From Candidatus Saccharimonadota bacterium (GTDB lineage: Bacteria > Patescibacteriota > Saccharimonadia > Saccharimonadales > Saccharimonadaceae), in contig JAFQXN010000002.1 of the NCBI GenBank assembly GCA_017406905.1, positions 3,501-67,500 of the forward strand: a stretch of 64,000 nt of DNA, in the 5' to 3' direction. Below, piece after piece: positions 5,573-11,233 of the stretch. The notes under the pieces were generated by a model that saw nothing but the letters and a program-made list of their open reading frames with translations, had not been told where the DNA came from and did no database searches. Positions within the stretch are counted from its first letter, which is position 1, and the number at the start of each line of letters is the position of its first letter. The position numbers were made by a program, and so were the translations under genes.

Positions 5573-6100
5573 TTAGGCTGCCCATGGTTCGTCTTCTCCT
5601 ATCGCGCGGTTGTATGAGCTTTTGAGGTTTCTTTCTACTAATTTCCAATATTCGTCGGTGGCACGAGCGATGTCACCACTTTTGGTGAATTGATGGATGA
5701 TTCCATCCATCTGGCGAACACCAGCTTTATTGAGTGTTTCTCCGGTCTTAATGGACTCTTCGGGGTGAAAAGTGGCCTCGGTAGAAGCACTGCTCGACGC
5801 AACGTCTAGCCCTGGCTGCTCAAGCTCAGTGACTACGCCCATGGGCGGCATGGTCGGAGTGATTTCTGCGGACATAATTGGGCTGTTGTGGCTACTTTCG
5901 GTACTATTTAGCGTGTTACTGCCAATGCTACGGAGGTCATGTTCGGCCGTGGAGCCCCAAGAAACTTGATTATTGGTAGTGTCTAGATTATTTTCTGGTT
6001 CAAAATTATTAACTTCTTCTGAGGCGGTGCCAGCGCCGGCGGTAAAGAAGGGTTCTTCTTGAGTAGGGGCAGCGGACTGCATAGTATGACCATAATCCAT
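5573..6100 (-). CDS. hypothetical acidic protein
   Basis: 175-aa ORF preceded by TGG-TAAAAT-6 nt-ATG. Confidence 0.7.
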   Translation of the reverse strand: MDYGHTMQSAAPTQEEPFFTAGAGTASEEVNNFEPENNLDTTNNQVSWGSTAEHDLRSIGSNTLNSTESSHNSPIMSAEITPTMPPMGVVTELEQPGLDVASSSASTEATFHPEESIKTGETLNKAGVRQMDGIIHQFTKSGDIARATDEYWKLVERNLKSSYNRAIGEDEPWAA

Positions 6101-6118
6101 AAGCTTATTTTACCACAT

Positions 6119-6472
6119 TTAGATTCTTTTGTAGACTAAAAACTCAGCCAAAAACAGAAAGATAAAAATAAGGCTGATAGTCCATAGATCTACGGCCCCG
6201 AACGAACGCGCCATGAGCAACATAATGGGACAGAAAGCCATAACTGCGGAATAGAGGTAATCTTTACCGCGAAAAGTGTTCCTTCTGAGCGCAAGCTTAA
6301 TGAAACTGCGCATGATGAGTGTCATAATGCCAAAAGACACGATATAAATTGTTGTAAAAAATAATAAAACCCCGAACGGCCCAATTTCCGTCGGAGATGT
6401 AAAAATAAGCATAATGATTAAAGCTGCGAGTCCAATAATGCTTACTGTTGAGAGAATACGGTTATGCTTCAT
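6119..6472 (-). CDS. small 4-TM membrane protein
   Basis: 117-aa hydrophobic ORF preceded by TGC-TATAAT-6 nt-ATG. Confidence 0.75.
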   Translation of the reverse strand: MKHNRILSTVSIIGLAALIIMLIFTSPTEIGPFGVLLFFTTIYIVSFGIMTLIMRSFIKLALRRNTFRGKDYLYSAVMAFCPIMLLMARSFGAVDLWTISLIFIFLFLAEFLVYKRI

Positions 6473-6514
6473 AACCCTATTATAGCATATCTGGTTAAAT
6501 CCCCCAAGAATTTA

Positions 6515-6878
6515 TTGAAGGGTGAGCGGGGGGTTATCCGGTGCTAAAATCACAACTATTGACCGCAACCCCTGTCGCTTTTCCCTTTTTGACCGCTTCA
6601 CGCTAGGTGAAGCATTGTCCTTGTTAGCTATTTTCTTTCATTCTTGTTTATGTTTCTTTAATGTGCTAATGAAAGATTTGATCTAACGCGCTCTACGCTT
6701 TTGGTTTCTGTCGCTAAGGTCAAACCCTTTAGCGGAGCTCTAGGTAATTCCTAAGGTGTAATTTATGGCTAGAAATTACCTTTTCGCCCGCTAAAGTTTA
6801 CGGTTTATTCCTAGCTTTTGGCTTTTTCCTTTTCATTTTGTCCTTTGTTTTTAGTTTTTGTTTTAGTCATCTCGACTG
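6515..6878 (-). ncRNA. unannotated structured RNA or long leader (~365 nt), with a possible 12-aa uORF
   Basis: Sigma70 promoter just upstream. Four hairpins at 6714-6814, 6623-6687, 6595-6613 and 6518-6588. No long ORF. Confidence 0.55.
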
Positions 6879-6883
6879 TTTTA

Positions 6884-6912
6884 ATACTAGCATACATTGC
6901 GAAAAAAATCAA
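6884..6912 (-). promoter_or_regulatory. sigma70 promoter TTGATT-17-TAGTAT with extended -10 TG
   Basis: Minus strand reads ttgatt tttttcgcaatgtatgc tagtat. Confidence 0.6.
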
Positions 6913-6934
6913 TAGATTTGTTCGGCTTTTTAAA

Positions 6935-7011
6935 GTATTTTTTACAACGTTTTGCCAGTTTTTCCCTGTTTATGCCGGTTGTTTGAATTGTTGTATTTTT
7001 TACAACGTTTT
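6935..7011. repeat. 19-bp perfect direct repeat GTATTTTTTACAACGTTTT (6935-6953 and 6993-7011)
   Basis: Read directly from the sequence; 58-bp period. Confidence 0.9.
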
Positions 7012-7081
7012 TATGTTGTTTTGCGTAAATGATGGTAATGGGACATAAAAAATAGGCCTTTGGGGCTCGGATCGACATAAA

Positions 7082-7438
7082 TGGTGGAGCTGCCGGATAC
7101 TGCCTCCGGGTCCGAACTATCACTTGGATATGAATCTACGCGCATAGTTTTCTGTTTTATCTTGGCGGATATTATCAGCTGCAGAAAACGAAACTGATAA
7201 ATGCCATGGCTAGTTTTCGAGCTATTTCTCGCCAATTAAATAGCCTTATTCCCGTTGTATGATAATTTCAATCCTACGGAACCTCAGATTGAAACCAGCC
7301 TAGAAATAATAATTAGGCATAAGCTGGCATGTATGCTACATGCGCAGTTTGCGTGTTTTTAGCACTTATTTAATACTTACGGTATTTAATCGACGCGCAT
7401 CATATCTGTAAATAATCCGTCTAAGCTTTGTCAGCCCC
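7082..7438 (-). ncRNA. ssrA: tmRNA (tag AKNTQTAHVAYMPAYA*, 7363-7313)
   Basis: 5' end GGGGCTGA..AGAC and 3' end ..CCGGCAGCTCCACCA form the alanyl acceptor/T-arm. Resume context ATAAGT-GCT. Tag ends in Ala. Confidence 0.95.
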
Positions 7439-7479
7439 AACTACGGTATAGTATAGCATAAGAGTCAACAGATAGCAAT

Positions 7480-7587
7480 AGAAAAAGACCGGTAACTGCG
7501 AGGAAAACCGGTCTTTTGTAGAGTGTGGAGTTATTTTGGCTAATTTTTTGTTTTGACCTTTTGAATAATTTTTTTATTCAAAAGCTA
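7480..7587 (-). ncRNA. candidate ~105-nt sRNA
   Basis: Perfect TTGACA-17-TATAAT promoter (7621-7593), 5' hairpin CTTTTGAATAA/TTATTCAAAAG, intrinsic terminator, no AUG. Confidence 0.6.
7482..7517 (-). terminator. intrinsic terminator AAAAGACCGGT-13-ACCGGTCTTTT
   Basis: 11-bp perfect inverted repeat with U-tract. Confidence 0.8.
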
Positions 7588-7807: not shown

Positions 7808-9316
7808 ATGATAGCTAAAATACATTCTGCAATTCCCTACGGCTTCGAAGGAAAGCTGGTCGAAGTCGAAGGAGATATGAATCGGGGGTTACCAGCTTTC
7901 AATATCGTGGGCATGGCAAACAAAACCATAAATGAGGCAAAGGAAAGGGTGCGAAGCGCAATAGTAAACTCAGATTTTTCGTTCCCCGATAAAAAAGTGA
8001 CGATCAGTTTAGCTCCAGCCGAACTGATGAAGGATGGGGCATATCTGGATTTACCGATTGCGCTCTCTGTACTACTGCTGTCTGGACAGCTAGTAAAGGG
8101 CGATGTGGCAGATAGGTTGTTCGTGGGTGAATTGTCGCTGAATGGTGAAATTCGGCCCGTGAGAGGCATTATAAACATCGTAGAGGCCGCCAAAAAGGCC
8201 GGATATAAGGAAATATACGTCCCGCGCAAAAATCTCACACAGGCTTCCTTGGTCACCGGAATAGACATATATGGCTTAGATACCTTGCAAAATCTATTCT
8301 TGGGACTAAAGAACCAGATTACGCTAGCTGTGGCAAGTGGAGCGGTGGCGCCAAAAAATGAAGATGAAGAGAGTACGGATGGCCCAGTATTAGATCATAT
8401 CAGGGGTCAGAAATTAGCAAAAAGGGCGATGGAGATTGCAATTGCCGGGCATCATAATATCTTGATTTCTGGGCCGCCCGGGGCGGGCAAAACGCTGCTT
8501 GCGAAGGCGGCAGCCAATCTGTTACCAAAATTAACTTCGGTAGAAAAAGTTGATATTACGAAAATTTATTCGATTGCAGGATTATCTACAGATGAAATAG
8601 TAGAGGTGCGACCGTTTCGGGATCCGCATCATACGGCGAGTTCAATCTCGATGATAGGTGGGGCGACTGGCCCAGGGGAGATTTCGTTGGCGCATAAGGG
8701 TATTTTATTTCTTGATGAGATACCAGAATTTCCGCGGTCGGTGTTAGAGGCCTTAAGACAGCCACTTGAGAATAAGACGATTTCGATTTCACGGGCGAAT
8801 CGCAAAACAACTTACCCAGCAGACTTCATGTTAGTAGCGACGATGAACCCCTGTCCGTGCGGATATTTGGGCGACCCCACGCATGAGTGTAAGTGCACAG
8901 AAACTCAGATTCATAATTACCAGAAAAAGCTTTCTGGACCGCTGTTTGACAGGATAGATATGAATGTTGAAGCCGAAAAGGTAGATAATCGGCACTTGCG
9001 AGCTAAAATTGCAGTAACTGCGGAAGAGCATAGTGTTGTAAAAAATAATATAACAGGGGCAATTTTACGCCAAAAGGCGAGGTACGGGCGGGAAGGGTTT
9101 TACAATAGTTCCCTTTCTTCATTTGAAGTATCTAATTTATTGAAGCTCGAACCAAGGGCCGAGAAGTTACTATCCGATGCTTCGGAGAAATTAAATTTGT
9201 CAGCGAGATCTTACTTTAAGACTATCAAGGTCGCCCAAACAATCGCCGACCTTGATAATTCGGAAATGATTTTGGCAAAACATTTGGCCGAGGCTCTGAT
9301 ATACAGAAGAAGATAG
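7808..9316 (+). CDS. comM: YifB/ComM Mg-chelatase-like AAA+ ATPase
   Basis: GPPGAGKT, RPFRDPHH, GEISLAHKGILFLDE, NPCPCGY, SARSY motifs. Confidence 0.92.
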   Translation: MIAKIHSAIPYGFEGKLVEVEGDMNRGLPAFNIVGMANKTINEAKERVRSAIVNSDFSFPDKKVTISLAPAELMKDGAYLDLPIALSVLLLSGQLVKGDVADRLFVGELSLNGEIRPVRGIINIVEAAKKAGYKEIYVPRKNLTQASLVTGIDIYGLDTLQNLFLGLKNQITLAVASGAVAPKNEDEESTDGPVLDHIRGQKLAKRAMEIAIAGHHNILISGPPGAGKTLLAKAAANLLPKLTSVEKVDITKIYSIAGLSTDEIVEVRPFRDPHHTASSISMIGGATGPGEISLAHKGILFLDEIPEFPRSVLEALRQPLENKTISISRANRKTTYPADFMLVATMNPCPCGYLGDPTHECKCTETQIHNYQKKLSGPLFDRIDMNVEAEKVDNRHLRAKIAVTAEEHSVVKNNITGAILRQKARYGREGFYNSSLSSFEVSNLLKLEPRAEKLLSDASEKLNLSARSYFKTIKVAQTIADLDNSEMILAKHLAEALIYRRR

Positions 9317-10835: not shown

Positions 10836-10850
10836 ATTTATTGTGAATAT

Positions 10851-11187
10851 GAGCCGTCATTAAGCCGGGTTCTGTAATCCCTCAAAGAGAGACCGACAAC
10901 CATCTATCTTGACGTTACATTGCTATAACGTTCTAGCGGTAAGCGCACATCCTCGAGCGAAGGTTTAATAGTGCTCCTTGCAACAGGTAGGGTTTGCCTC
11001 CGCGACATATCGCTACGACGCGCTGTGGGCTCTTACCCCACTCTTTTCACCCTTACCCCGTGCAAGCACGAGGCGGTTTGGTTTCTGTGGTACTTTCCCT
11101 ATCCTTACGGACGGTCGCTGTTAGCGACTACCCTGCTCTGTGTTGCCCGGACTTTCCTCTTATATAAAGCGATTGTCTTTCAGGCTC
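10851..11187 (-). ncRNA. rnpB: RNase P RNA
   Basis: Conserved GAGGAAAGTCCGGGC near the 5' end and ACAGAACCCGGCTTA near the 3' end. P1 is GAGCC/GGCTC. Confidence 0.95.
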
Positions 11188-11233
11188 TCCTGAATTATAT
11201 CACAGGACGAATAATATTAAAAGTAGTTATAGT

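Follow-up and report, generated by a model that had tools for sequence, protein, structure and literature searches.

The stretch of DNA analysed here (the window) comprises 64,000 nucleotides (nt) of a Candidatus Saccharimonadota contig, JAFQXN010000002.1, from a gut Saccharibacterium (Ca. Nanosyncoccus), and carries on its minus strand an RNA gene situated downstream of the transfer-messenger RNA (tmRNA) gene, which Rfam places at 7082-7438. The RNA gene is followed, in this order, by the gene for a small protein with four predicted transmembrane (4-TM) helices, referred to below as mp117, a gene for a 175-residue protein without matches, a gene for a VirD4-like ATPase and gyrB. Very probably, the RNA gene encodes a member of an undescribed family of structured RNAs that spans the class Saccharimonadia, and it is transcribed from a predicted extended -10 promoter of its own. 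The family, shorter relatives included, has members in hundreds of Saccharibacteria genomes, where they occupy the same position next to mp117 and VirD4-like ATPase genes. An unannotated, highly structured RNA of ~365 nt had been proposed here by the original prediction, made from the sequence alone; the stability of the fold and the lack of any Rfam match bear this out, and the RNA proves to belong to a larger and older family. The coordinates of the RNA gene, its parts and its downstream neighbours are collected in Table 1.

Table 1. Features of the RNA gene and its downstream neighbours (positions in whole-stretch numbering; the RNA gene and its features are read on the minus strand)
Feature	Position	Strand	Remarks
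RNA promoter	6912-6884	minus	-35 TTGATT 6912-6907, 17-nt spacer, extended -10 TG (6892-6891)-C-TAGTAT (6889-6884)
RNA gene	~6878-6515	minus	promoter, 5' hairpin and four helices; window copy ~360 nt
5'-terminal hairpin AGUC-GAGAU-GACU	6877-6865	minus	in minimum free energy fold
A-rich linker AAAACAAAAACUAAAAAC	6864-6837	minus	includes Shine-Dalgarno AAGGA 6845-6841
Mini-ORF (mini open reading frame), predicted product MKRKKPKARNKP	ATG 6836 to TAA 6800-6798	minus	12 codons; stop at foot of H1
H1, long irregular hairpin	6796-6727	minus	basal stem CUUUAGCGG/CCGCUAAAG, internal loop GCGAAAA/UAGAGCU, upper stem GGUAAUU/AAUUACC, apex CUAGCCAUAAAUUACA
Variable region between H1 and H2	6726-6699	minus	expansion point of the family
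GCGUAGAGCGC mini-hairpin (6698-6688) and H2	6698-6623	minus	H2 outer stem GUUAG/CUAAC, inner stem UCUUUCAUU/AAUGAAAGA
AAGGAC linker, H3 and GGUCAAA	6622-6587	minus	H3 is GAC..UGCUUCAC-loop-GUGAAGCG..GUC; GGUCAAA invariant
H4, three-tier hairpin	6586-6519	minus	AGGG/CCCU, AGCG/CGCU, GGGGUUGCGGU/ACCGGAUAACCCC; conserved CAAUAGU and GGAUAAC
Pyrimidine-rich 3' tail ..CCCUUCAAUAAA	6518-6505	minus	CUCCAAA in alignments of most relatives
mp117 gene promoter	6507-6479	minus	-35 TTGGGG 6507-6502, 17-nt spacer, TG-C-TATAAT 6487-6479, 6 nt, ATG 6472
mp117, 117 residues, four predicted transmembrane helices	6472-6119	minus	directly downstream of the RNA in all lineages inspected
VirD4/TraD-like coupling-type ATPase, 877 residues	5523-2890	minus	Pfam TraG-D_C 25.3 bits against a cut-off of 22

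Promoter, fold and transcription of the RNA gene

The promoter TTGATT-17-TGcTAGTAT is present as originally read and its core, TTG and TGnTAnnAT, is kept in 56 of 56 aligned relatives; the promoter escaped a simple consensus scan, since it agrees with the consensus at 8 of 12 positions only. The RNA would start at ~6878-6876. Its 3' end is undefined because the clade of the window has no terminator, no hairpin followed by a U-run being found at the 3' tail in the window; judged by the fold, the RNA would end near 6515.

Folding of a 371-nt stretch yielded a minimum free energy (MFE) of -100.1 kcal/mol, against -68.8 +/- 4.5 kcal/mol in 100 dinucleotide-preserving shuffles (z = -6.9), none of which was equally stable. 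All of the helices originally described, namely the 5' AGUC/GACU hairpin and H1 to H4, are present, also in the MFE fold. Conservation was assessed in an alignment of 56 sequences from loci fetched via the protein of the neighbouring comM-like gene (7808-9316, Mg-chelatase domains), in which the upper part of H1 and H3 are nearly invariant, and the base of H1, H2 and H4 vary with compensatory changes. RNAalifold returned 54 pairs for these sequences, 24 of them with compensatory changes. Counted over the 76 pairs of the family-level helices, 91.1% of cells were paired, compared to 36-47% in controls in which the 3' partners were slid by 1-3 columns; changes on both sides affected 33 of the 76 pairs (11-17 in the slid controls), and the covariation score was 0.172 (at most 0.076 in the slid controls). 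None of 500 column shuffles reached the observed values, a control that is inflated by the relatedness of the sequences. Homologs are abundant and their stems covary, as the proposal of a structured RNA called for. On the minus strand, G-U pairs outnumber A-C mismatches by 415 to 149, an excess which argues for selection on a minus-strand RNA rather than on a DNA palindrome; palindromes acting at the DNA level were rejected on the strength of this asymmetry.

All four pairs (4/4) of the 5' hairpin show compensatory changes, such as AGCU/AGCU in two relatives, and distant and environmental relatives carry a hairpin with a CAAAAACAAAAAC loop. The basal stem of H1 changes its sequence fully between lineages and stays paired (UAGCGG/CCGCUA, UUCCGCA/UGCGGAA, UGGUGG/CACCAA), and compensatory changes, seen in two relatives, L076 and L277, along with wobble changes favour pairing of GGUAAUU with the distal AAUUACC in the upper stem. 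An alternative H1 fold, GUAAUUU/AAAUUAC, was rejected because the changes in L076 and L277 break it and keep the other pairing. The H1 stems originally listed are all present, but the window alone has the basal AAACC/GGUUU extension, which overlaps the last codons of the mini-ORF. The H1 apex was unchanged in 118 of 118 distinct sequences, a count partly built in by a retrieving search pattern that fixed 15 of its 16 bases; better evidence comes from the 55 loci fetched via the comM-like protein, in which 15 of 16 bases showed no variation or were conserved to at least 90%, the first (C) varying in L076. A pairing partner of the invariant tip within the window was rejected, as the complement of the tip matched the window 7 times with up to 3 mismatches against 6.9 expected matches, i.e. 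not above chance.

The strongest covariation in the window's clade is that of H2, one inner pair of which is AU in 28 and GC in 27 sequences and whose outer stem shows changes on both sides in 5 of 5 pairs. The H3 region, nearly invariant in the close clade, has U-A replaced by C-G in 28 of 100 sequences, and holds the AGCGGUCA block that it has in common with the environmental relatives described below. Among the motifs originally noted as occurring twice, the GCGGUCAA repeat (after H3 and inside H4) is conserved in relatives, but the others are mostly A-rich sequence.

No known family accounts for the element. With the 4227 models of Rfam 15, which include OLE, ROOL, GOLLD, raiA, 6S, signal recognition particle (SRP), T-box and riboswitch models, only tmRNA, RNase P RNA, tRNA and rRNA passed the gathering thresholds in the window, in 14 distant gut-clade loci and in 10 environmental loci. 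Permissive searches gave chance-level matches (E = 1.1 or worse) for window positions 6300-7200 at E <=10, for a 1.1-kb variant (L121), for a short variant (L264) and for the whole window at E <=1. Accordingly, the window copy, the long gut variants and the short environmental relatives are all without a family match, at gathering thresholds as well as at E up to 5-10, and a literature search found no description of this RNA. In the window, Rfam located RNase P RNA (10846-11188), the tmRNA and three tRNAs; the earlier statement that tmRNA, RNase P and a 6S-like RNA are accounted for elsewhere is thus confirmed for the first two, but neither a 6S nor an SRP model matched anywhere in the window at E <=1.

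Since no SRP or 6S RNA turned up in the 64-kb window or among the loci fetched, and since the family is single-copy, class-wide and located near tmRNA and RNase P RNA, one may ask whether it is a diverged SRP or 6S RNA that escapes the Rfam models in Patescibacteria. The element gave no SRP or 6S match even at E <=10; SRP and riboswitch motifs had not been recognised originally either. It has no GNRA-capped helix with the loops of SRP domain IV, the loops of H3 and H4 being other than GNRA and variable in sequence, and the consensus folds are multi-hairpin, with no 5'/3' closing stem and central bubble of the 6S type. The window is, moreover, a small part of a genome in which such RNAs can lie elsewhere. 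A diverged SRP or 6S RNA is therefore a most unlikely explanation.

No RNA run containing the exact strain of the window was found, and the contigs considered here stem from relatives. In four rumen or gut metatranscriptome runs from three studies, contigs with at least 80% identity on 6100-7500 covered 6523-6850 at a depth of 5-46, the depth over the tmRNA being 80-2950. One contig runs from H1 into AAAAGGAGAAUCAUGAAAAAGAAGCGAUUC, which corresponds to the relative's ribosome-binding site and mini-ORF. Depth drops below ~6523, near the 3' tail; the depth profile was rejected as proof of transcript boundaries, the flanks being too diverged for contigs of relatives to map. These contigs attest to presence in RNA libraries, not to transcript boundaries, and are supportive of transcription rather than decisive.

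Long gut and short environmental types

The closest relatives of the RNA belong to a gut clade made up of Ca. Nanosyncoccus and relatives. The 80 loci fetched via the comM-like protein (54-81% identical) came from ruminant guts and nearly all from Candidatus Saccharibacteria or Ca. Nanosyncoccus, few bins being labelled otherwise; nearly all of those that reach the RNA region keep it, always on the same strand and at 70-82% nucleotide identity. An exact pattern for the tip of H1, TAGCCATAAATTAC-N2-8-AGGARTTRCC, was found in at least 120 genome contigs, with one match per contig, from ruminant and mouse-gut catalogues among others. The 80 matches listed are all labelled Saccharibacteria or Nanosyncoccus, with the exception of one untyped bacterial bin. 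The H1 core pattern was absent from 2.9 million viral contigs, and a phage or mobile origin was rejected on this ground. A covariance model of the 3' module (H3 and H4), R1, found this module in 116 of 116 gut-clade loci searched; in 100 distinct sequences, both partners have changed in 18 of its 29 pairs, and the covariation score reaches 0.284, whereas slid controls do not exceed 0.138.

In gut-clade loci, the H1 core and H3 stand between 127 and 1057 nt apart, with extra, well-folding sequence inserted between H1 and H2; the version in L121 reaches ~1.1 kb. Versions of 0.8-1.1 kb or longer, with long structured H1-H2 inserts, were seen in L121 (3866-5160) and in five further loci. In long gut versions, H4 is followed by two or three extra hairpins with CACGAU loops, then by a conserved UUUUUGAAUCAGAGGUGU and sometimes by another tiny ORF. 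ROOL and GOLLD are large ornate RNAs that first came to light in metagenomes from rumen and lake samples. The present RNA resembles them in its rumen-derived sequence, in its large, elaborate folds (up to ~1.1 kb) and in its location beside a tRNA-like gene, that of tmRNA. In contrast to ROOL and GOLLD, whose Rfam models do not match it, it is chromosomal, single-copy and vertically inherited, not linked to phages and absent from the viral contigs. ROOL and GOLLD self-assemble into multimers (PMC12286853).

More distant relatives were sought in 80 loci of environmental Saccharimonadia, anchored on the 877-residue ATPase via a 49%-identical representative. A sequence-only profile search with nhmmer revealed the gut-type RNA in only one of them, L277, which carries every gut-type part including an ORF of 3 codons; for the rest, a structure-aware model was needed. 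A marginal R1 match in L264 led to a shorter element, in which the promoter is followed by the 5' hairpin with its CAAAAACAAAAAC loop, H3, GAGCGGUCAGUCA, H4 (UAAGCGCU ... AAUAGU ... AGCGGAUUUA) and GGCUCCAAA. Its 3' end is marked by a separate hairpin-plus-U-run terminator in 4 of the 5 loci examined in full, and in L264 by a U-run directly after H4. A second covariance model, R2, built from four short-type sequences, found the short RNA in 45 of the 79 other loci, in all of them on the gene strand and mostly 0.9-1.1 kb upstream of the ATPase gene. Pairing holds in 94.2% of the cells of the R2 set, and both partners have changed in 17 of 25 pairs; the covariation score is 0.401 (at most 0.073 in slid controls), and G-U pairs exceed A-C mismatches by 120 to 17. 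A motif pattern for the short type occurred in at least 120 further genomes, and the 80 listed are nearly all Saccharimonadales or Saccharibacteria, with few bins under other names.

The two types share, in the same order, the blocks AGCGGUCA, GCGsU-C-AAUAGU, CGGAUwwAC and a CUCC(A) tail (CCCUUCAA in the window), and the best match of R2 within 2 kb of the window element falls on H4 (6530-6572, E = 0.021). Because of these four ordered blocks, the reciprocal matches of R1 and R2, the intermediate character of L277 and the same neighbouring genes, the gut and environmental types are likely to be homologous. The ancestral core is made up of the 5' hairpin and A-rich element, H3, the invariant AGCGGUCA, H4 (AAUAGU, GGAUwwAC) and the CUCC-containing tail, ahead of which the gut clade has inserted the mini-ORF, the invariant-tipped H1 and H2. 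An RNase P RNA gene was further noted a few kb upstream of the short RNA in L264 and seven other environmental loci; the window is similar in having RNase P RNA, tmRNA and the RNA gene within 5 kb, and clustering of stable-RNA genes seems conserved.

The setting beside tmRNA, a common integration site, and the VirD4-like gene, together with the inversion of the tmRNA gene in about half of relatives, could also suggest an element acting as DNA, e.g. a transfer origin or a recombination or attachment site. This is hardly credible. G-U pairs far exceed A-C mismatches, the promoter is conserved and the element is found in RNA libraries; each genome holds one copy in a synteny fixed across the class, and there are no flanking repeats of the tmRNA 3' end and no occurrences in the viral contigs. 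An island inserted at tmRNA was likewise rejected, the synteny being stable and neither inverted repeats nor a duplicated tmRNA 3' end being found around the region.

The inversion itself concerns the tmRNA gene body alone (7082-7444 in the window) and was seen in about half of the loci among close relatives, with collinear flanks; each orientation has its own promoter, and the window has no flanking inverted repeats. A 19-nt sequence, GTATTTTTTACAACGTTTT on the plus strand, is directly and perfectly repeated between the tmRNA and the RNA promoter (6935-6953 and 6993-7011), and one of its two copies is part of a TTGTA-N5-TACAA palindrome. Such a palindrome precedes the RNA promoter in 95 of 115 gut-clade loci, compared to 4 of 96 control stretches, and could be a terminator or an operator.

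The mini-ORF and the downstream genes

The segment originally described simply as A-rich holds AAGGA, the ATG and the TAA of a conserved mini-ORF. An ATG-initiated mini-ORF of 4-20 codons is present in 101 of 119 distinct gut-clade sequences, and several others start with GTG; the stops are TAA (74), TAG (26) and TGA (1), and 86 of the 101 have a Shine-Dalgarno-like motif 3-16 nt before the ATG. In 47 sequences of the window's clade, exactly 17 nt separate the stop from the AAAGG of H1 that follows it, with ORFs of 5-12 codons, a fixed distance despite varying length which implies that insertions and deletions have kept the frame. The element thus has the conserved frame, start signal and stop of a protein-coding small ORF. 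The peptides (MKYK, MKRKP, MKKFKT, MQLKIPK and MKRKKPKARNKP) share little beyond M-K and a basic character, which argues that the conserved feature is predicted translation up to the foot of H1, the act of translation rather than the peptide. A ribosome terminating at the stop would, given the size of its footprint, cover and open the basal pairs of H1. In most relatives, a second ATG lies in the loop of the 5' hairpin (6862-6806 in the window, opening MTKTKTKNK...) and in a few its frame runs into the mini-ORF; this ATG was rejected as the start of an ORF since its stop is not conserved and the ATG itself is absent in some relatives.

Good Shine-Dalgarno motifs, an ATG and a conserved frame and stop position are also what one would expect if the RNA were a small mRNA whose product is the cationic mini-peptide and whose structure serves only to stabilise or terminate the message. 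With peptides of 4-20 residues that share little sequence, an ORF that some gut lineages and all environmental relatives do without, and a non-coding part far better conserved than the ORF, this explanation is very improbable.

In monoderm bacteria, a hairpin at the very 5' end and a strong ribosome-binding site protect RNA from 5'-end-dependent decay, as in the Bacillus subtilis aprE leader and the cryIIIA STAB-SD. The RNA described here likewise begins with a hairpin and has a strong ribosome-binding site close behind, but those stabilisers protect ordinary mRNAs, whereas the protected body would here be a non-coding structure, and a mini-ORF with a fixed stop has been kept.

The ORF that follows the RNA encodes 107-145 residues in every lineage inspected, and in the gut clade the 117-residue protein is 35-50% identical in distant lineages. 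The 706 homologs of mp117, few of which have a source name, those being hypothetical proteins of Saccharibacteria, show no Pfam domain above cut-off, nor does mp117 itself. Its AlphaFold2 model is a four-helix membrane bundle with a mean predicted local distance difference test score (pLDDT) of 82. In environmental loci, the RNA is separated from the ORF downstream by a median of 55 nt, and 23 of 47 such ORFs match the gut-protein profile in hmmsearch (E 2e-11 to 2e-4). The ATPase gene lies further downstream; NCBIfam TraD/VirD4-like matches to its product fall below their cut-offs. The VirD4/TraD-like ATPase family numbers 20,463 representatives at E <=0.001, many of which are 1400-2000 residues, twice as long, with C-terminal extensions being common.

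A second promoter lies ~30 nt beyond the RNA element. In agreement with the original claim of a separate promoter for the downstream gene, a predicted extended -10 (TGnTATAAT) lies 6 nt before the ATG of mp117, without a Shine-Dalgarno motif, in the window and in 17 of 17 distant gut-clade loci inspected, and at least 20 of 47 environmental loci have a -10-like hexamer 4-9 nt ahead of the ATG. This points to an mp117 mRNA that would be leaderless and have its own start.

These observations bear most directly on the main rival explanation, that the RNA is a cis-acting leader, a riboswitch-like aptamer or attenuator of the mp117/175-residue/VirD4-like operon that senses a ligand, a protein or ribosome traffic via the mini-ORF and sets transcription into the operon. 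Throughout the class, the RNA is directly followed by one and the same gene set in matching orientation, with only a short gap to the ORF in environmental loci, where a terminator often stands between the two; the conserved nucleotides of the RNA cluster in internal loops and junctions, as in an aptamer, its C-rich, G-poor tail could load Rho, and its mini-ORF abutting a helix resembles leader-peptide attenuators. In such attenuators, e.g. Salmonella mgtL/mgtA and corL/corA, the position of the ribosome on a very short ORF remodels the downstream structure. The resemblance extends to the C-rich stretch that could load Rho, but here the downstream gene is served by a leaderless promoter of its own, a search for alternative pairings found none and the short relatives lack the ORF. 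What weakens a leader function most is the mp117 extended -10 without a Shine-Dalgarno motif, since leaderless translation of mp117 needs its own start site and not read-through. The terminators of the environmental loci follow the conserved core without overlapping it and vary in sequence, and no alternative anti-terminator pairing was seen among those checked by eye; in the window's clade, terminators are missing altogether. A sensor that grows from ~200 nt to over 1 kb would be unusual, and no Rfam riboswitch matched. Overall, a cis-acting leader appears doubtful, even if it is the alternative to be taken most seriously.

A trans-acting, base-pairing small RNA (sRNA) was considered as well, in which the CUCC tail or another single-stranded conserved block would pair with Shine-Dalgarno regions of targets and block translation. 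C-rich motifs that target ribosome-binding sites are typical of the sRNAs of monoderm bacteria, and CUCC(A) follows H4 in most gut and environmental relatives; in environmental loci it stands just before the terminator, in a seed-like place. In the gut-type fold, however, the tail pairs with the 5' strand of H4, which is rich in purines, and conservation extends far beyond a seed, to ~30 or more invariant loop positions. No conserved target pairing was found, only pairing with the mp117 start having been examined: an 8-bp match of the 5' strand of H3 to the start of the mp117 mRNA (AUGCUUCA:UGAAGCAU) was rejected as antisense control of mp117, since the Lys codon alternates between AAG and AAA with no compensating change and other lineages lack the match. 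We consider a base-pairing sRNA improbable.

Possible function and significance

The arguments for a new stand-alone class of non-coding RNA thus fall into two parts. The absence of a known family, the RNA's own promoter and the covarying stems uphold the class, but the mini-ORF means that it is not strictly non-coding; likewise, the RNA appears to be a unit of its own, but its class-wide link to the downstream genes leaves room for a role in cis or as a partner. We tentatively favour a stable, protein-binding RNA that may act with the adjacent membrane protein and ATPase. It is favoured because of its predicted own promoter and the terminator of the short type, its invariant loop nucleotides, its adjacency to the same neighbours, and its 5' hairpin and ribosome-binding site. 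Dozens of nucleotides are invariant in loops and internal loops, far beyond the need of a pairing seed, and the RNA, 4-TM and ATPase genes have remained neighbours even where the proteins have diverged to 35-50% identity, with the RNA loops unchanged.

In such a protein-binding RNA, the mini-ORF, its strong ribosome-binding site and the 5' hairpin would together stabilise the 5' end and load ribosomes. On reaching the stop of the mini-ORF, a ribosome would occupy the foot of H1 and open it for a short time, and the invariant loops of H1, H3 and H4, together with their internal loops, may provide surfaces for protein or tertiary contacts. Along with the products of the leaderless 4-TM gene and of the VirD4/TraD-like ATPase gene, the RNA could then act as the scaffold of a ribonucleoprotein or as a regulator. 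We give the explanation as a whole an even chance of being right, the identity of the RNA being very probable and this mechanism less likely than not.

The nearest analogy is OLE of the Bacillota, whose gene directly adjoins that of a small 4-TM protein which binds OLE RNA and takes it to the membrane. Both are large, ornate and highly conserved RNAs, and here too the RNA gene is always followed by a 4-TM gene. The differences are several: the Rfam OLE model does not match, the phylum is another, mp117 has no Pfam domain or CorB/CNNM-like fold match, the two genes have separate promoters, and most members measure ~200-360 nt as opposed to ~600 nt for OLE. The OLE partner OapA has four helices and takes part in a membrane-bound particle (PMC11332333, PMC12265935), and its predicted fold resembles the CNNM/CorB membrane domain (PMC11332333). 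An OapA-like partner was rejected here, comparison of the mp117 AlphaFold2 model with the PDB lending no support to an OapA/CorB-like fold.

Small RNAs that control conjugation or competence machinery are exemplified by FinP/FinO and RocR/RocC. Like these, the present RNA is a small structured RNA that lies beside, and plausibly acts on, type IV secretion-like or DNA-transfer genes. Unlike them, it is not antisense to its neighbour, has no identified FinO/ProQ-type partner and is much more structured and conserved. A bolder proposal is that the RNA is a component or cargo of the type IV secretion-like apparatus of Saccharibacteria, either within a membrane particle with the 4-TM protein and the ATPase or handed by the ATPase to the host cell, with the mini-ORF and the expansions as host-facing additions of the gut clade; this, too, we regard as improbable.

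Several points weigh against a protein-binding RNA family as outlined here. No protein partner has been identified. The mp117 model has no significant fold neighbour in the PDB (best Foldseek E = 1.0) and no CorB chain among its 50 best matches, and the basic residues in the mp117 loops are as in any membrane protein. Gene order is strongly conserved in these small genomes, which could account for part of the adjacency. The model scores that link the gut and environmental types are weak (12.5 and 14.7 bits), and the remaining evidence for this link is motif order and context. With neither a terminator nor a mapped 3' end in the window's clade, read-through into the next gene is possible. RNA evidence consists of assembled contigs of relatives without strand information, and with flanks too diverged to map the depth profile is hard to read. 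Finally, the mini-ORF is absent in gut lineages L097, L125 and L174 and in all environmental relatives, from which it follows that it is not central to the function of the family.

In a preprint on the TM7x transcriptome, Saccharibacteria are said to have "no currently validated small RNAs" (10.1101/2022.03.25.485537). Saccharibacteria genomes being ~94% coding, a conserved non-coding gene of 200-1100 nt stands out. Hundreds of species-level genomes, dozens of invariant nucleotides and covarying helices place this family among the better-supported orphan RNAs of bacteria. It also offers a case of growth of a structured RNA, the gut clade having added a mini-ORF, whose translation is predicted, and near-kilobase expansions to a small ancestral core. 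It is the family that is new. The type IV secretion-like system of Saccharibacteria is class-wide and essential, and its role is completely unknown (PMC11665869). Fixed as it is beside the VirD4-like ATPase gene, the RNA may thus provide a new entry point to this essential, unexplained machinery and to the epibiotic lifestyle of these bacteria.

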